42,798 bases of DNA from a virus. Position numbers and translations under genes: made by a program. The stretch is taken from the IMG/VR virus record IMGVR_UViG_3300045988_053235, positions 1 to 42,798 of that record; one strand, written 5' to 3'. The notes below the pieces were generated by a model, which was given only the letters and a program-made list of their open reading frames with translations, was not told the DNA's origin and searched no databases. Positions 2,162-8,883 of the stretch are shown in pieces. How positions within the stretch are numbered: the stretch's first letter is position 1; every line of letters begins with the position of its first letter.

Positions 2162-3392
2162 TATTCTATTGTCAGAAAAAATCGGCTCGGCTTTTTACGA
2201 TGTGGCTCACGATGTGTTCCATCATGGGCACACGCATTACGATTTCAGCGGCGGGCGCGGCTCATTAAAGTCGTCCACGGTGTCTGTACTCGTCCCCCTT
2301 CTGCTGATAAATAATCCGGGTACGCACGCGCTTGTGCTGCGCAAGGTAGCAAACACGATCCGCGATAGCGTTTATGCACAGTATATCTGGGCAATCGGCG
2401 AGTTGGGCATGGCGGCGTATTGGGAAGCCAAGGTTTCCCCGATGGAGCTGATCTACAAGCCGACAGGACAGAAGATCATGTTTCGCGGCGCTGATGACCC
2501 GATGAAGATCAAGTCTATCAAAGTCCCATTTGGCTATATCGCCGTGACGCACTTTGAAGAAAAAGATCAGTTTGCCGGACGGGCGGAAATCCGAAACATT
2601 TTGCAGTCGACCATGCGCGGTGGCTCGAAGTATTGGAACTTCGAGAGCTATAACCCGCCTATCTCGCGTGACAACTGGGCGAACAAGGACAGTTTGGAGG
2701 AACGCACCGACCGCTTTTGCCACAAGTCAACGTATCTTGAAGCACCGCCAGAGTGGCTGGGAGAACAGTTTTTAGCGGAGGCGGAACATCTCAAGGCCAC
2801 GGACGAGCGCGCGTATCAGCACGAATACCTCGGCATTCCGGTCGGAACGGGCGGCAATGTGTTTGACAAGCTGGAACTGCGGGGGATTACCGATGAAGAA
2901 GTCAAAAGTTTTGACCGAATCTATCAGGGGGTGGACTTCGGATGGTTCCCAGACCCGTTAGCTTTTATCCGGCTACATTACGACAAGGCAAGGGAAACGA
3001 TTTACCTGCTTGACGAGATATACCAGAATAAGCTTTCGAACGAGCAGAGCGCGACTATAATCAAACAGCGCGGATATGGCAATGTGCGCGTCATCTGTGA
3101 CAGCGCGGAGCCAAAGAGCGTGGCTGACCTACGGGCAATGGGATTGCCTGCGTATGAGGCGGTCAAGGGACCCGGCTCGGTCGAATACGGTATGAAGTTC
3201 TTGCAGAGAAGAACGATTGTCATTGATAGAAAACGGACGCCACATGCCTACGATGAGTTCGTGGGATACGAATATGAGAGAAACAAAGACGGCGACATTA
3301 TTAGCGGCTACCCTGACGCGAACAACCACCTGATTGACGCGACGAGGTATGCGTTAGAGCCTGTCAGCCGCAGAATGGGAGTTATTGCATGA
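2154..3392 (+). CDS. terL: Terminase large subunit (PBSX/Terminase_3-like)
   Basis: About 410 aa with ATPase N-terminal and nuclease C-terminal regions (ICDSAEPKS...DANNHLIDATRYAL). RBS AAGGTGG precedes ATG 2154. Confidence 0.93.
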   Translation: MSDILLSEKIGSAFYDVAHDVFHHGHTHYDFSGGRGSLKSSTVSVLVPLLLINNPGTHALVLRKVANTIRDSVYAQYIWAIGELGMAAYWEAKVSPMELIYKPTGQKIMFRGADDPMKIKSIKVPFGYIAVTHFEEKDQFAGRAEIRNILQSTMRGGSKYWNFESYNPPISRDNWANKDSLEERTDRFCHKSTYLEAPPEWLGEQFLAEAEHLKATDERAYQHEYLGIPVGTGGNVFDKLELRGITDEEVKSFDRIYQGVDFGWFPDPLAFIRLHYDKARETIYLLDEIYQNKLSNEQSATIIKQRGYGNVRVICDSAEPKSVADLRAMGLPAYEAVKGPGSVEYGMKFLQRRTIVIDRKRTPHAYDEFVGYEYERNKDGDIISGYPDANNHLIDATRYALEPVSRRMGVIA

Positions 3393-4819
3393 GCAGTGCA
3401 GTTATCCAAAAGTTAAAAGAACTTGGCTATACGACAATCCCGGAAGATTTTTACAGCCAAGTTGACCTCTGGAAGTCCTGGTATGTTGGGAAAGTAAAGG
3501 ATTTTCACAGATACAGAGAATATAACGGGCATGAGTGGGTGAAAAAGAAGCGGGCTTCGCTCGGAATGGGAAAGAAAGTCTGCGAAGATTGGGCAAATCT
3601 GCTCATGAACGAAAAGGTTAAAATCACGCTTGAAGGCAAAAAAGAACAGGAATTTATTGATCGCATTTTGGAAGAAAACAACTTTACTGTAAAAGCAAAC
3701 GAAATGCAGGAAATGAAGTCCGCGCTCGGAACGGTTGCATATGTACCGCGCGTCATTGGACAGAAAGTAAACGACTACGACGCTCCGATTCCCGGAAGTG
3801 CGGAAGACATTGCAATCGACTATGTGACGATGGAGCACATTTACCCGCTTTCGTGGCGAAATGGCGTGATTACAGAGTGCGCATTTGATAGCGTTGTAAC
3901 ACGGCTCGGACATAAGTATTTGTTCCTGCAAATCTTTAAAAAAGAGCGGAATGGAAAATACACAATCGAAAACAGCATTTATTTGTACGAGAATGAAACG
4001 CTGTCGGAAGTTAGCCTTGCATCCGTTGATGGCTTTGAGCATATCCCGAGTGTCGTTCATACAGGGAGCGCAGAAAAGCAATTTGTGATTGATCGACCGA
4101 ACATCGCAAACAATTTTGATTACCTCTTGCCAGTCGGTGTTCCTGTTTATGCAAATGCTCTTGATGTGCTGGAAAGTGTAGACAAGGCGTTTAACTGCTA
4201 TGGCAACGAGTTTGACAATGGCGCGTTGCTGCTGATGGTAAAAATGCCAGCAACAAGGTATGAGGACGGGAAACCGACTTTGAACAATAACGATAGTAGG
4301 TTTTACCTTCTCCCAGAGGACACGCAGCAAGGGAACGTTGTCGAACCAATTTCCCCACAGTTAAGGACCCAGCAGTTAAATATCGGGTTGCAAGACCAGC
4401 TCAATATTCTTTCAAGCAAGTGCGGGTTTGGCGAGACCTATTATCGGTTTAGTGGAGATAGCATTGCTACGGCTACGCAGGTCATCAGCGAGAACAGCAC
4501 CATGTTCCGCACGATCAAAAAGCATGAAATTATCCTCGAGCAGGCGCTCGTGGAGCTGTGCCGTGTTCTTCTCCGGCTCGGGAATACTGCAATGAATGCA
4601 GGGCTTGACGAAAACGTTGAAATCTCCATCGACTTTGACGATTCAATCATCGAGGACAAGCAGACGGACTTTGCCCGAGATCTCCAGCTCCTGAACGCCA
4701 ACATCATGAACGACTGGGAGTTCCGGGCAAAGTGGATGAACGAGGATGAGGCCACCGCAAAGGCAGCACTGCCAAAGATGCAGGACATGGTGGACGAAGA
4801 GCAGAACGAGGTCGAATAA
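3389..4819 (+). CDS. Portal protein (SPP1 gp6-like)
   Basis: 476 aa, immediately after terL with an ATGA overlap. Size and sequence style fit siphoviral portals. Confidence 0.88.
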   Translation: MSSAVIQKLKELGYTTIPEDFYSQVDLWKSWYVGKVKDFHRYREYNGHEWVKKKRASLGMGKKVCEDWANLLMNEKVKITLEGKKEQEFIDRILEENNFTVKANEMQEMKSALGTVAYVPRVIGQKVNDYDAPIPGSAEDIAIDYVTMEHIYPLSWRNGVITECAFDSVVTRLGHKYLFLQIFKKERNGKYTIENSIYLYENETLSEVSLASVDGFEHIPSVVHTGSAEKQFVIDRPNIANNFDYLLPVGVPVYANALDVLESVDKAFNCYGNEFDNGALLLMVKMPATRYEDGKPTLNNNDSRFYLLPEDTQQGNVVEPISPQLRTQQLNIGLQDQLNILSSKCGFGETYYRFSGDSIATATQVISENSTMFRTIKKHEIILEQALVELCRVLLRLGNTAMNAGLDENVEISIDFDDSIIEDKQTDFARDLQLLNANIMNDWEFRAKWMNEDEATAKAALPKMQDMVDEEQNEVE

Positions 4820-5211
4820 TGGGCGGACGCGGCGCAAGCAGCGGAATGAGCGAAAAGGGCAAGCATTACGGGAGCGAGTTTAGATCGGTCTTGCAGGATG
4901 GAAATATTAAATTCGTCAAGCCAAAAAGCGGTTCTGCAACTGCACCATTGGAAACAATGACACGCGGGCGGGTGTATGTAACAGTTAATGCGGCTGATGA
5001 ATTGAAATTCATTTCGTACTACGACAATCAGAACAAGCGCACAAAGACTATTGATTTGACAAAGCCGCACAAAGGAGTTTTGCCACATACCCACCACGGG
5101 TACGAACACTTTGAAAATGACAGCAAAAAGGGATTTGCAAACCTGACAACCGAAGAAAAGGCAATGGTTGCAAGGGTTCGCAAACTATGGTACAATCGGC
5201 ATAGCAAGTAG
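4819..5211 (+). CDS. MGGRG-leader protein 1 (130 aa)
   Basis: TAATG overlap with portal. N-terminus is MGGRGASSG. The body (NIKFVKPKSGSATAPLETMTRGRVYVTVN...HTHHGYEH) resembles domains I recall at the C-termini of MuF-type proteins. Confidence 0.75.
   Translation: MGGRGASSGMSEKGKHYGSEFRSVLQDGNIKFVKPKSGSATAPLETMTRGRVYVTVNAADELKFISYYDNQNKRTKTIDLTKPHKGVLPHTHHGYEHFENDSKKGFANLTTEEKAMVARVRKLWYNRHSK
5168..5196 (+). promoter_or_regulatory. Near-consensus sigma-A type promoter with extended -10
   Basis: TTGCAA (5168-5173), 17-nt spacer, TGgTACAAT (5188-5196). Predicted start is about 5203-5204. Confidence 0.6.
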
Positions 5212-5270
5212 TAATGTAAGCGGAGCATTCGGGGGAACCCGTTGTCCCGGTTCAAATCCGGGCGCTTGCT
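5204..5270 (+). ncRNA. tRNA-like RNA lacking an anticodon loop
   Basis: Acceptor 5204-5210 pairs with 5263-5269. D arm is AATG/CATT with a GG-containing loop. T arm is CCCGG-TTCAAAT-CCGGG (5246-5262). The anticodon arm is replaced by CGGG-GGAA-CCCG (5230-5241). Confidence 0.55.
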
Positions 5271-5313
5271 ATGCCGTAAGGTACAGAAATGTATCTTGCG
5301 GCATTTTTATTTT
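5271..5313 (+). terminator. Rho-independent terminator
   Basis: 14-bp stem ATGCCGTAAGGTAC / GTATCTTGCGGCAT (two G-U pairs), loop AGAAAT, then TTTTATTTT. Confidence 0.8.
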
Positions 5314-5331
5314 GCGGGAGGTGTTTACATT

Positions 5332-5685
5332 ATGGGTGGTAGAGGTGGGGCTGGCGGCGGCAATAGCCGTAGAATCTTGGCCTTTGACGTTGATATGGAC
5401 GGAGCAGTAGTGAACTACGTCTTGAGAAACGGAAAGGTTTACCGAAATGATGGGGAGCCTATTGCGCTCCAGCCGCAAAAAGTGATCGAAAACGCCAAAA
5501 AACTCGGGTACTCCGTGAAAACGTATAACAAAAAGGAATATGAAGAGCGGGAAAAATCCCGAAAAGAGGACCGGCGGATAACTGATGAATTTTTGAACGG
5601 GATGGACACGCAAATTGGCGGGAATAGGCGCGACCAGCGGATGGAGCTTATCGGAAACAGGGCAGCAAAGAGGAGGCGGAGATAA
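5332..5685 (+). CDS. MGGRG-leader protein 2 (117 aa), very basic C-terminus
   Basis: RBS GGGAGG, then ATG 5332. N-terminus MGGRGGAGGG. C-terminus NRAAKRRRR. Confidence 0.7.
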   Translation: MGGRGGAGGGNSRRILAFDVDMDGAVVNYVLRNGKVYRNDGEPIALQPQKVIENAKKLGYSVKTYNKKEYEEREKSRKEDRRITDEFLNGMDTQIGGNRRDQRMELIGNRAAKRRRR

Positions 5686-6360
5686 GTGGTAAACTTCGAG
5701 AACCTCGACAAGTTTGCTTTCCCTGGCGCGGGAAAATACAACATCCCCCAAATCGAGCCAGTAACCGAATACCCGCATGGTGAGTTTATCCCTGTCAACT
5801 ACCATTACACCGAAAAGGACCCAGGGAGTAAAAACGTCCACTTTTTTGTAGACGATTATCAGTTTGTCCGCCACTGGAATGCCCCGGACAAATACATACC
5901 GAAGCTGTCACAGTTTGCGGCGGTATGTGCGCCGGACTTCTCGACCTACACCGATATGCCCCTAGCGATGCAGATATACAACCATTACCGCAAGCATTGG
6001 TTGGCGGCGTACTGGCAGCTGCATGGTATGACCGTCTACCCGACCATATCGTGGAGTGACGAGGATAGCTATAGCTGGTGCTTCGACGGTGAGCCTGTTG
6101 GCAGCATTGTGGCCGTATCATCCGTAGGGACACAGGTCAGCAAGGAGAGCAAACGCCTATTTTTGCGTGGCTATGATGAGATGATGCGGCGGCTAGAGCC
6201 GTCGTGGGTCATATTTCACGGCAAGGTGCCGGAAGAATGCGACTGGAACGTGATACGGGTGCAGCCGCACTACAAAAGTATAAGAGAGAGGGTGAGCAAA
6301 AAATGGGAGGTCGTGGCGGACAAGGAGGGGCCTATGATGGATACAGTGTCGATTACCTAA
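5686..6360 (+). CDS. DUF4417-like protein
   Basis: GTG start after AGGAGG. Sequence VHFFVDDYQFVRHWNAPDKY...PDFSTYTDMPLAMQIYNHYRKHW matches my memory of DUF4417. Confidence 0.65.
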   Translation: MVNFENLDKFAFPGAGKYNIPQIEPVTEYPHGEFIPVNYHYTEKDPGSKNVHFFVDDYQFVRHWNAPDKYIPKLSQFAAVCAPDFSTYTDMPLAMQIYNHYRKHWLAAYWQLHGMTVYPTISWSDEDSYSWCFDGEPVGSIVAVSSVGTQVSKESKRLFLRGYDEMMRRLEPSWVIFHGKVPEECDWNVIRVQPHYKSIRERVSKKWEVVADKEGPMMDTVSIT

Positions 6361-6560
6361 ACAGGATAAGAGATCGCTATGTGGCCGTCGTTGAACAAAA
6401 CAAGATACACGCAATGTTTAACGAAAACTCAGAGTCCAAAATCATACGTCAGAAAGCAAGAACCGCGAAAAAGGCGAGAGAAAAAGCCTTTGACAAGATC
6501 GATGAAATCGATAAAGCCATAGAAAAGGCTAAACGCCGAAAGAACATCATCCCGTTTTAA
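6303..6560 (+). CDS. MGGRG-leader protein 3 (85 aa), basic coiled C-terminus
   Basis: ATG 6303. N-terminus MGGRGGQGG. Overlaps the DUF4417 3' end out of frame. Ends in a TAATG junction with MuF. Confidence 0.65.
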   Translation: MGGRGGQGGAYDGYSVDYLNRIRDRYVAVVEQNKIHAMFNENSESKIIRQKARTAKKAREKAFDKIDEIDKAIEKAKRRKNIIPF

Positions 6561-7744
6561 TGCCTATGAAATACCCATTTACCCCTGAAATCATCGATGC
6601 TCTCCCTGAAGAGCTTGCGGACCTTTACCGCAACCTGGAGGATACGTTGCTGATCGAGATATGCTCCAGACTCAAGGCCAAAGACCAGTTTAACGAGGTG
6701 ACGGTGCAAGATATCCGGGCGCTTCGCTCCCACGGTATACCATTGGAGGACATCGAGAAGGCTATCCGCAAGGCAACCGGAATCAGCGAGAAAAAACTGA
6801 AGGAGCTGCTGGACGATGTGGTGGAGCGAAATCAGAAATATTACACTGACATCATCGACCTGGCCCACCTAACCCAGCCGGAAACCCTTTTGAGCATCGA
6901 GGACACCTGGGCCATCTACGAGCAGACCCGGCAAGAGATGCGCAACATCACCCGTTCCATGGGCTTTTTGGTGGACGGTGGGCGGACGATGCTTCCCGCG
7001 GCGAAAGCGTACCAGTGGGCACTTGATAACGCGGAGATGCAGGTGCAGAGCGGGGCCATCAGTTACAACCAGGCTATCCGGTCGGCGGTGCGGCAGCTTG
7101 CCCAAAGCGGCCTGAAAATCGTCGATTATGAGAGCGGGCACCGCGATCAGATCGACGTGGCCGCCCGCCGGGCTGTCATGACAGGGGTATCTCAGCTCTG
7201 TGCAAAGTACACGGAGCAATCCGCCGACTACCTCAACACCCCGTATTTTGAGGTATCCGCCCACGCTGGGGCGCGGGATAAGCCTGGGAAGTCCCCGTGG
7301 TCCTCCCACAAGGCATGGCAGGGCCGTGTGTACTCCATCAGGGCCGGTGGCATCTATCCCAACATCTACGACGTGTGCGGCCTGGGGGCAGTTGACGGGC
7401 TGGAAGGAGCCAACTGCCGCCACCGGCGCTATCCCTGGGTAGAGGGCATTATGGAGCGCACCTATACCGATGAACAACTTGCCCACATCGACGATGGGCT
7501 GGGCTGCACTTACGACGGCAAGAGCTACACGGCCTATGAGGCCACGCAGATGCAGCGCCGCTTAGAGCGGCAAATCAGGGCGGTGAAACGCCTGAAAATC
7601 AGCAATAAGGCATCTGGACTGGACGATGAGGCACGGACCGCAAACATCAAACTGCGCCGCCTGAACGCCAAATACAGGGCTTTCAGCGCAGCGGCGGGGC
7701 TGACACCGCAATGGGAAAGGACGAAAGTGCTATATGATCGATGA
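6560..7744 (+). CDS. Head morphogenesis / minor capsid protein (Phage_Mu_F, SPP1 gp7-like)
   Basis: 394 aa in the usual position. Sequence SAHAGARDKPGKSPWSSHKAWQGRVYS...GANCRHRRYPW is typical of the MuF family. Confidence 0.85.
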   Translation: MPMKYPFTPEIIDALPEELADLYRNLEDTLLIEICSRLKAKDQFNEVTVQDIRALRSHGIPLEDIEKAIRKATGISEKKLKELLDDVVERNQKYYTDIIDLAHLTQPETLLSIEDTWAIYEQTRQEMRNITRSMGFLVDGGRTMLPAAKAYQWALDNAEMQVQSGAISYNQAIRSAVRQLAQSGLKIVDYESGHRDQIDVAARRAVMTGVSQLCAKYTEQSADYLNTPYFEVSAHAGARDKPGKSPWSSHKAWQGRVYSIRAGGIYPNIYDVCGLGAVDGLEGANCRHRRYPWVEGIMERTYTDEQLAHIDDGLGCTYDGKSYTAYEATQMQRRLERQIRAVKRLKISNKASGLDDEARTANIKLRRLNAKYRAFSAAAGLTPQWERTKVLYDR

Positions 7745-7924: not shown

Positions 7925-7996
7925 GTGCAATCGAGCACGTGGAAGTGGCACGAAGAGCCAACTGACTATGTTTGTAGTCGGTTGGCTCTTTTTTAT
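7925..7996 (+). promoter_or_regulatory. Conserved element copy A: AATCGA-loop hairpin + GAAGTGGCA box + terminator
   Basis: Hairpin GTGC-AATCGA-GCAC (7925-7938), GAAGTGGCA box, stem AAGAGCCAAC (7953-7962) / GTTGGCTCTT (7981-7990), then a T-run. Confidence 0.6.
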
Positions 7997-8022: not shown

Positions 8023-8883
8023 ATGGCAGACGAAGGTGGAGTTTGGCGCACGATTGGCGGTCGCCGCGTGTTTATTAAAGACGGACAAAGTCTGACGGAT
8101 GCAATGCGCGAGAGCGGGAAATTTGGAGATCTCAAAAAGAAATCAACGGCGACCTCCAAAAAGCAGACCGTCGATACCGAAGCAAGTGCCGAATACGGGG
8201 TCGAACACAAAGTTTGGGGGAAGGCGACCGGAACAAGCTACGAGGCATTAAAAGATGACCAGTACAAACTTACTGGAGAAAAAACCGGTGAAACGCTTCA
8301 AATCCCAAAAAATGAAAGTGGAGAATTTGAAGTGTACAAAGCGCCTAAAGTATCTGGATTTCTAAATGGGAAATATGTCGGCGACGAAAATGTGAACGCA
8401 ATTTTATCTGATGGCCGAATTGTCTTAAGAGACCACGATTTTAATAATGATACATATTACAAGATAAGCGGCATTATTGAAGCGGAGACACTTAGACTTG
8501 CTGGCTATCAAAAGGACGGGCAGTTTTACCGAGGAACCGATAACCCTAAAGAGATTGAATATCTCAAGAATGGGACTATGCGCGTGTCCACCAACCACAT
8601 GACGGGGGAAAAAGGAGATGGCGTATCCGTTTGGGAAAGCCCTAAGTACCCGTTCAAGTATCAATATCGAGTAACCGGTAAGGTTTCCGGAGTGGGTAGC
8701 GATGGAGAGCCGCTGCTTGATCCCGCGTCCATTAAACTTGTTAGCGCAAAGTCCTATTCTGTTAAAGACTACAATGCTGCGATGGAAAAGGGGAAGCCCT
8801 TGTTTTGTAAGGCGTACGGATGGACAGAAGAACAATACGACGCGGCAAAAAAGGGAAGCATTAAAAACAGAAAGCGACTGTAA
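8023..8883 (+). CDS. Hypothetical protein (286 aa), moron-like insert in the head module
   Basis: ATG 8023. N-terminus GGVWRTIGGRRVFIKDGQSL. Bracketed by element copies A and B. Visibly more AT-rich than its neighbours. Confidence 0.7.
   Translation: MADEGGVWRTIGGRRVFIKDGQSLTDAMRESGKFGDLKKKSTATSKKQTVDTEASAEYGVEHKVWGKATGTSYEALKDDQYKLTGEKTGETLQIPKNESGEFEVYKAPKVSGFLNGKYVGDENVNAILSDGRIVLRDHDFNNDTYYKISGIIEAETLRLAGYQKDGQFYRGTDNPKEIEYLKNGTMRVSTNHMTGEKGDGVSVWESPKYPFKYQYRVTGKVSGVGSDGEPLLDPASIKLVSAKSYSVKDYNAAMEKGKPLFCKAYGWTEEQYDAAKKGSIKNRKRL

Follow-up and report, generated by a model that had tools for sequence, protein, structure and literature searches.

A GGRG Leader Peptide on Unrelated Small Phage Proteins and Its Linkage to DUF4417

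The viral DNA studied here (IMG/VR record IMGVR_UViG_3300045988_053235, positions 1 to 42,798; hereafter the window, meaning the whole stretch of 42,798 nucleotides) carries between its portal and MuF genes a 1.7-kb insert that encodes a DUF4417 protein and three small proteins, all three of which begin with Met-Gly-Gly-Arg-Gly, here called the GGRG leader. This leader is present on a wide diversity of protein bodies in related phages, and the genes that it heads are linked to DUF4417, which, and not portal or MuF, is their invariant partner. Judged by how its coding sequence varies, the leader is a true tag, conserved as a peptide and shared by proteins that have nothing else in common, and the families that bear it are, as far as their predicted domains tell, swappable effector cassettes (toxins in some cases) of phages infecting Gram-positive bacteria. 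We propose, with a probability of about 0.4, that DUF4417 and the GGRG cassettes form a two-part module in which the effectors would be recognized or processed and then packaged into the capsid.

RESULTS

Three leader-headed proteins in the window

An earlier note, made from the letters of the window alone, had described three small open reading frames (ORFs) with an MGGRG start at 4819, 5332, and 6303, and the positions agree with it, each start following a Shine-Dalgarno (SD) site. Cassette 1 (plus strand, 4819 to 5211; 130 amino acids [aa]) opens with MGGRGASSG and belongs to phrog_9479; cassette 2 (plus strand, 5332 to 5685; 117 aa) opens with MGGRGGAGGG and has a rare body with the polybasic tail AAKRRRR; cassette 3 (plus strand, 6303 to 6560; 85 aa) opens with MGGRGGQGG and has a helical basic body. 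The highly basic tails attributed to two of the proteins are present, reading ...NRAAKRRRR and ...KAKRRKNIIPF, respectively, in proteins 2 and 3. An SD-like site lies 7 to 10 nt 5' of each MGGRG start: for cassette 2, the mechanically called ORF opens with TTG at 5242, yet the SD sequence GGGAGG precedes the ATG at 5332, and for cassette 3, which is preceded by GAGGG, the start lies 58 nt within the DUF4417 ORF. The six-frame translation of the whole 42.8-kb window contains GGRG eight times, and just three of these occurrences follow a start codon, all on the plus strand and within 1.5 kb.

The leader is conserved in the homologs of all three proteins, even where the bodies have diverged to 37% identity. 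Protein 1 matches phrog_9479 end to end (4.6e-50) and has 1092 homologs, with an MGGRG start in 115 of the best 120; among its homologs in phage records, 30 of 30 match from residue 1, and in most of these 30 records a DUF4417 or ParB-DUF4417 gene covers or adjoins the match. Protein 2 has only 7 close homolog clusters, with GGRG kept in 7/7, and homologs of protein 3 at 37 to 38% identity still open with MGGRG at residue 1. Of the objections foreseen in the earlier note, a leader not kept in homologs and mis-called starts both fail, given the SD site at each ATG and homologs that begin at residue 1.

No recognizable domain was found in the three bodies by Pfam and PHROG and, for protein 1, by a PDB fold search as well; protein 2 belongs to no Pfam or PHROG family. 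Structure prediction with AlphaFold, which had been suggested as a check of the bodies and was run on protein 1, produced a moderate model and no fold match: the AlphaFold2 (AF2) model has a mean predicted local distance difference test score (pLDDT) of 75, with residues 1 to 12 below 50, so that the leader is predicted to be disordered, followed by a beta-rich body and a C-terminal helix, and no PDB entry matched better than E 0.7. An invariant His cluster in protein 1 (PHTHHGYEH; PHxHHGYxH in the family; H84, P89, H90, H92, H93, G94, and H97) suggests a metal site.

The leader as a tag on a polymorphic set of proteins

The survey set comprised 212 related sequences, and an IMG/VR search with a degenerate DNA pattern (SD plus ATG GGN GGN MGN GGN ...) matched at least 119 stretches. 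The 212 sequences contain 257 ORFs of at least 60 aa (207 unique) that start with ATG and read MGGR(G/S), and these sort into 44 body clusters unrelated by BLAST. Their leader consensus is M-G-G-R-G-(G/A/S)-(A/S)-(G/S)-G, with positions 1 to 5 invariant and positions 6 to 9 rich in Gly, Ala, and Ser. Since the first five residues are written in 69 different 15-nt DNA strings, selection acts on the leader peptide, and a DNA-level repeat or recombination site behind its conservation is ruled out. The differing synonymous codons that had been noticed among the three copies are indeed seen in the window, and the claim built on them, that conservation lies at the peptide level and not in a DNA repeat, gains from these 69 strings and the 44 unrelated families. 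Where the extended motif is accompanied by a downstream ORF, it stands directly after ATG in 248 of 264 cases and after GTG in 5 of 264. A polybasic C-terminal tail occurs in 19 of the 44 body families.

Domains recognized among the leader-headed bodies are ADPrib_exo_Tox (an ADP-ribosyltransferase [ART] exoenzyme), Gln_amidase (a papain-fold glutamine deamidase), an ATLF-like, lethal-factor-like metalloprotease, DUF6883, and DUF3626, and one more family has a JAB-like HNHPxG...S..D motif; to judge from these assignments, the bodies in which a domain can be recognized count as effectors or toxins. At one and the same slot, the MGGRG-led protein differs among three related faecal phage records, and in survey locus L056 (11258-11515, minus strand) MGGRGGAGGG runs straight into the C-terminal third of DUF4417 within a chimeric ORF, which looks like a recombination scar at the leader. 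A shared N-terminal module with exchanged, unrelated C-terminal domains, the general mark of polymorphic toxins and effectors (Zhang 2012), is what these families display. Directly 3' of the GGRG-led ART or protease toxins of actinobacteriophages lie ORFs of 72 to 101 aa (L203:2236-2541, L204:1894-2112, and L211:1982-2281), which are candidates for immunity proteins; the window itself has no obvious immunity-gene candidates.

DUF4417 as the constant partner

In the loci selected from IMG/VR by the leader, DUF4417 is present in 96 of 101. The reciprocal set, 80 prophage loci of Oscillospiraceae, Lachnospiraceae, Ruminococcaceae, and related groups selected by DUF4417, has an ATG-MGGRG ORF on the same strand in 68/80 and on the opposite strand in 0/80, most of the remaining loci being truncated or having variant leaders or GTG starts. 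With these frequencies in both directions, DUF4417 is no mere bystander in the insert. One prophage (L152:3308-5967) has the variant leader MGGRSAKSG three times, beside a divergent DUF4417.

The leader-selected loci share a near-invariant gene order (TerL, Portal, cassette or cassettes, DUF4417, optional cassette, MuF2, scaffold, capsid), and 55 of the 103 leader genes downstream of DUF4417 start within its 3' end. In the DUF4417-selected prophages, the module usually lies between SNF2-type helicase and terminase genes, and MuF and portal neighbors are fewer: the gene downstream of the module in 61 such loci is MuF2 in 4, MuF1 in 2, and TerL in about 29. In cluster A mycobacteriophages, the module makes up genes 1 to 3, at the very left end of the genome and distant from portal. 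The module sits in or beside packaging/head genes or the cos end in all loci examined, and the position between portal and MuF is specific to the window's lineage. The leader can thus no longer be tied to portal and MuF, as had been supposed, its position elsewhere being terminase side or genome end; a survey for MGGRG ORFs beside these two genes, which the earlier note had recommended, finds many such ORFs, while adjacency to portal and MuF is not general. What survives of the idea of a polymorphic cargo working with MuF and portal is the toxin-type set itself, with its ADP-ribosyltransferase, glutamine deamidase, and metalloprotease bodies.

Across phage records, DUF4417 is found in 504, including 385 of Mycobacterium, 57 of Streptococcus, and 39 of Gordonia phages, and in every example examined that has a DUF4417 gene, a GGRG-type gene begins at or just inside the DUF4417 3' end. 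The pairing spans phyla, from mycobacteriophages and a Gordonia phage to Streptococcus phages. Gp3 of mycobacteriophage AbbyPaige consists of MGGRGSKGG, a Gly-rich linker, and a VIP2-like ART; gp2 of mycobacteriophage Phaded consists of MGGRGGAGG, a linker, and a HEMAH metalloprotease; gp2 of Gordonia phage JSwag is an ART. Streptococcus phage Javan318 has two GGRG genes behind a ParB-DUF4417 fusion, Streptococcus phage IPP65 also shows the pairing, and mycobacteriophage Lolly9 (L206, 4132-4518) has the variant leader MGRGRSPAG beside a divergent DUF4417. In mycobacteriophage D29 (L207), the annotated start of gp2 at 1318 misses an in-frame MGGRGSAGSGG at 1063, and the corrected start also adds a Gly-rich linker of about 80 aa; in Streptococcus phage Str01 (L205), the protein 1 homolog gp54 (STR01_54), annotated from 4115, has an in-frame ATG at 4091 that gives MGGRGASSG. 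Both GenBank starts appear to be mis-called. Bxb1 has no DUF4417 annotation and no MGGRG-led gene within its first five annotated genes.

The N terminus exposed by the leader

Since the residue after the initiator Met is Gly, this Met should be cleaved off, leaving GGRG as the N terminus. Rare variants bear a pre-sequence directly before GGRG: P0120 (L212:4001-4417), which lies behind a ParB-DUF4417 gene and is preceded by a good SD site, reads MLGVDIQLF/GGRGASSG, and others read MVMNLQYF/GGRGSSSG and ...YLQYF/GGRGANSG; besides P0120, such variants are located in L166 (about 2150) and L171 (about 1194). These pre-sequences, of the form M..(D/N)(L/I)Q(L/Y)F, agree with MLxx(D/N)LQ(F/L)F'A, the cleavage motif published for Prp in L27 and in the capsid and scaffold proteins of 80alpha (PMC9405229, PMC5744158). 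Cleavage of the Prp type would expose the same GGRG end, and because such variants exist, a free GGRG N terminus is suggested to be what matters. Few GGRG members use this route, however, and the three window proteins, which have no such motif, would rely on Met removal. One further family has a conserved N-terminal domain of about 75 aa (...FRNPLELY...LDEAL...) that ends at an internal GGRG(S/G)xSG and is followed by variable bodies (L149:8160, L162:8254, L165:6757, L176:7726, L192:7726, and IPP65, L209:3563-4309); this domain may be a cleavable pro-domain.

The DUF4417 protein

The DUF4417 gene of the window (plus strand, 5686 to 6360; 224 aa) matches PF14386 with 190.3 bits against a cut-off of 28.9 (E 2.9e-56), and its AF2 model (pLDDT 83) has alternating beta and alpha elements in a predicted alpha/beta barrel-like fold. 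The residues that are invariant from Clostridia to Mycobacterium phages (H52, D56, D57, Y58, F85, S86, D90, N99, Y101, R102, and W123) look like an active site. The protein has no sequence relative in the PDB and no PDB fold match reaching E 1e-3, PdxJ being the top entry and structures of PEP-mutase and of tRNA-guanine transglycosylase (TGT) also appearing, all at E 0.009 or worse. Among the predicted viral structures of BFVD outside its own family, phage queuine tRNA-ribosyltransferases come closest, at a weak level (E 1.5e-3 to 4e-3; template modeling score 0.42 to 0.49).

DUF4417 is often fused to a ParB-type domain, and DpdA, for its part, is paired with the ParB-like DpdB. The likeness to DpdA and TGT consists of this fusion and the weak fold resemblance; on the other hand, no sequence or fold match is significant, and the window contains no 7-deazaguanine synthesis genes. 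A TGT/DpdA-like activity of DUF4417 is a lead only.

An SpF41-like RNA at the end of cassette 1

A tRNA-like RNA had also been placed in the insert. A structured element is indeed there (plus strand, 5199 to 5305), while its identity as a tRNA does not stand: ARAGORN finds no tRNA at this site, and the Rfam tRNA model RF00005 scores 25.9 bits, below its threshold of 29. The element aligns over the full length of the Rfam SpF41 small RNA model (RF02435) with 36.3 bits, below the gathering threshold of 52, and nothing in the window matches Rfam at gathering thresholds. It begins within cassette 1, 13 nt from the end of that ORF, comprises an acceptor-like stem, a small hairpin, the T-arm GGUUCAAAUCC, a 15-bp terminator hairpin, and a U-run, and has a minimum free energy z-score of -5.2 relative to shuffled sequence. 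A promoter-like site lies directly 5' of it (TTGCAA, 17 nt, TG-TACAAT; plus strand, 5168 to 5196), found by consensus scan only, and may be a TG-extended promoter; such sites are not enriched over shuffled sequence.

Directly after protein 1 homologs, SpF41 scores 99.6 bits in Str01 (L205, 4483-4589), 98 bits in Javan318 (L210, 4452-4559), and 53.3 bits in L002, a sequence closely related to the window. In Str01, L002, and the window, the element begins about 13 to 16 nt before the end of the protein 1 homolog ORF, it lies likewise at the 3' end of this gene in Javan318 and L001, and a core of 52 to 54 nt is identical in more than 20 loci. The mycobacteriophage loci contain no match. Given its place at the 3' end of protein 1 homologs and its absence from mycobacteriophage loci, the element is therefore part of the protein 1 cassette and not of the module as a whole, and SpF41 appears from these sequences to be carried by phages in association with the phrog_9479 gene family. 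It has been reported only as a strain-specific streptococcal small RNA and as a horizontal-transfer candidate in mycobacteria, and no account that presents it as a phage element joined to this gene family was found in the literature. In the related faecal phage L001, positions 5224-5270 give a sub-threshold match to the Rfam gut-2 RNA (34.5 bits versus 39.8).

Gene layout around the insert

The window encodes, in order, TerS (GP3_package), TerL, an SPP1-type portal, the four inserted genes, MuF2, a 286-aa protein, scaffold, and an HK97-type capsid protein bearing an Ig domain; the integrase and the Cro/CI-type repressors encoded elsewhere in it indicate a temperate siphophage. The flanking genes are as previously assigned, the profile matches for portal (plus strand, 3389 to 4819; Pfam SPP1_portal, E 2.3e-13) and for the MuF-class minor capsid protein (plus strand, 6560 to 7744; Phage_min_cap2, E 9.3e-86) agreeing with that reading as does PF14386 for the embedded DUF4417. 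The Phage_min_cap2 match spans residues 8 to 375 of 394, which makes this a short MuF protein without a C-terminal toxin extension; its family, PF06152, is the MuF2 class (PMC5576092).

The portal stop and the cassette 1 start overlap as TAATG, and in related loci an upstream ORF of 449 to 476 aa stops precisely where the first MGGRG gene begins. Because cassette starts overlap upstream genes, a programmed frameshift joining portal or DUF4417 to the cassettes was considered and rejected, no in-phase slippery heptamer being visible at 4805-4822 or 6290-6306. Overlaps with upstream genes range from 1 to about 160 nt among phages, and translational coupling is a simpler account of them than frameshifting.

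No prohead protease family was found among the portal-to-capsid genes or elsewhere in the window, the PADLOC defense-system library gave zero matches, and NCBIfam gave nothing meaningful. A very strong hairpin with an 18-bp stem and a T-run lies at 7952-7991, within the head operon directly after MuF2. The 286-aa protein that follows (8023-8883) has no recognized family and starts with MADEGGVWRTIGGRRVFIKDG, and only some related phages carry its gene; its start, GGVWRTIGGRRVFI, was considered as a second tag and rejected, being confined to one protein family among the gathered loci.

DISCUSSION

In the mechanism that we propose, the 1.7-kb insert would be one copy of a two-part module of siphophages of Firmicutes and Actinobacteria, with the enzyme-like DUF4417 as its constant part and one to four exchangeable effector cassettes as its variable part. 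Removal of Met would leave a flexible GGRG N terminus, an end that the rare variants would reach by Prp-type cleavage, followed by a variable body and often a polybasic tail. DUF4417 would recognize or process this end and so assign the effectors to export from the producing cell together with the phage; most likely they would enter the capsid along with the DNA and in this way reach the next host. The tag would in this way replace the covalent fusion to MuF or portal used by other phages, and in the window's lineage the module would have settled between portal and MuF2, translationally coupled to portal by TAATG. What makes packaging into virions plausible is that MuF fusions of the same toxin domains occur in other phages, in which VIP2-type ARTs joined to MuF have been predicted to be virion components. 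Flexible leaders, long Gly-rich linkers, and polybasic tails, as read from the sequences, would suit proteins that travel with DNA.

Several observations weigh against this proposal: (i) the 12 proteins identified in Str01 virions by liquid chromatography-tandem mass spectrometry, the one virion proteome located for a phage with the module, include neither APZ81899 (DUF4417) nor APZ81907 (the protein 1 homolog), in a data set that is shallow, with the tape measure protein at the detection limit; (ii) many prophages have the module upstream of terS, beside replication genes, and expression at these loci may be middle rather than late; (iii) the enzyme-like residues of DUF4417 and its fusions to ParB fit a nucleic-acid-directed activity better than a simple adaptor; and (iv) members with an internal GGRG mean that a free N terminus is not universal unless those proteins are cleaved.

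The Str01 virion list would be expected if the effectors were never packaged and acted late in the producing cell or were freed at lysis, with DUF4417 modifying, inhibiting, or stabilizing them through GGRG as the shared activation or immunity step of a polymorphic toxin set. This explanation, which we consider rather unlikely while taking it seriously, accommodates the toxin domains among the bodies, the small ORFs behind mycobacteriophage toxins, which could be immunity genes, and the enzyme-like invariant His, Asp, Ser, and Arg of DUF4417. Against it stand the location in or beside packaging and head genes, which is consistent among lineages, the fusion of the same toxin class to the virion protein MuF in other phages, and the polybasic tails and long Gly-rich linkers, which fit DNA-associated, threadable cargo. 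The leader might instead be a capsid-targeting sequence (CTS) that binds portal, MuF, or scaffold directly, much as the scaffolding core is bound by the CTS of T4, DUF4417 being an unrelated passenger. The place of the window-lineage cassettes between portal and MuF2, the translational coupling of the first of them to portal, and the resemblance of a Gly-rich terminal peptide to the cargo-loading peptides of HK97-fold shells all speak for such binding, which we nevertheless hold to be improbable, since the portal/MuF neighborhood is specific to one lineage (6 of 61 downstream genes in the DUF4417-selected loci, as MuF2 or MuF1, against about 29 for TerL), the cluster A mycobacteriophage pair lies far from portal at the genome end, nearly all leader-selected loci have DUF4417, and the window has no prohead protease to process a CTS.

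The fold comparisons lead to a more radical explanation, that DUF4417 is a TGT/DpdA-like transglycosylase, often guided by ParB, that links GGRG covalently to phage nucleic acid through Arg4 or the N-terminal amine, so that the effectors would be packaged and injected as DNA-tethered proteins. The rank of phage queuine tRNA-ribosyltransferases among viral fold matches, second only to its own family, the recurrence of TGT entries in the PDB list, the common ParB-DUF4417 fusions, the invariant leader Arg flanked by Gly, and the invariant Asp residues of DUF4417 would be in keeping with it; the fold similarity is weak, however, and common to generic TIM-barrel proteins such as PdxJ, at the top of the PDB list, DUF4417 has no sequence relative in the PDB, and we know of no precedent for a glycosylamine linkage of the proposed kind. 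We regard tethering as a long shot. That the leader reflects chance low-complexity sequence or mis-called starts is hardly conceivable, short as the motif is, when three of only eight GGRG occurrences in the window stand at SD-preceded ATGs within 1.5 kb and the motif is kept after ATG in distant homologs and across 44 families.

The concept of polymorphic effectors on a constant trafficking element in phage head clusters is already known, from the MuF polymorphic toxins of temperate phages (Jamet et al. 2017; PMC5576092) and the MuF- or portal-fused effectors or "polyvalent proteins" (Iyer et al. 2017; PMC5512222). The GGRG proteins resemble MuF toxins in having variable effector or toxin domains on a constant N-terminal element in the head/packaging gene cluster and in overlapping domain classes (VIP2-type ART, peptidases, and JAB-like). 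They differ in that a peptide of about 9 residues takes the place of the 250-aa MuF domain as the constant element, each effector has a small gene to itself, DUF4417 is always there as a dedicated additional gene, and the MuF2 of the window is a short MuF without a toxin. None of the three window proteins contains a MuF domain (PF04233, PF06152, MuF3, or MuF4) in its own polypeptide, and muf is not at position +1 of portal, four genes and one small RNA-like element intervening.

An N-terminal signal that sends unrelated proteins into the head for ejection with DNA is a feature of phages T4 and P1. The T4 CTS, carried by the internal proteins IPI to IPIII and by Alt, is removed by the prohead protease after LxE-type sites, and packaging of the P1 Dar proteins involves large proteins and a hierarchy of helper proteins. 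The GGRG proteins have no sequence similarity to either system, and a processed targeting sequence like that of T4, which the earlier note had drawn on as an analogy, is unlikely in a window with no prohead protease and a tag that begins at residue 2. Encapsulin cargo-loading peptides, which have another consensus, are usually C-terminal, and bind the shell directly, offer an analogy only, that of a short Gly-rich terminal peptide on unrelated cargo of an HK97-fold shell; they have no DUF4417-like partner.

To conclude, a full-text literature search returned nothing on MGGRG or GGRG in phages or on the function of DUF4417/PF14386, and no report was found that siphophages of Gram-positive hosts share a universal short tag, so that the tag, its breadth, and its partnership with DUF4417 appear to be undescribed in the searchable literature. 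The comparison points to corrected gene starts in reference genomes (D29 gp2 and Str01 gp54), and the variant leaders of L152 and Lolly9 beside divergent DUF4417 proteins are material for the study of leader-DUF4417 co-variation. If the proposed module is real, it would give a functional context to DUF4417, a domain that several hundred sequenced phages carry, D29, A25, and pneumococcal prophages among them; it would group at least 44 phage protein families, mostly without a recognized domain, as one candidate effector class; and it would provide a handle of about 10 residues for trying to load foreign proteins into phage particles. Should tethering prove true, the module would represent a new kind of protein-DNA conjugate and a new route of effector delivery.

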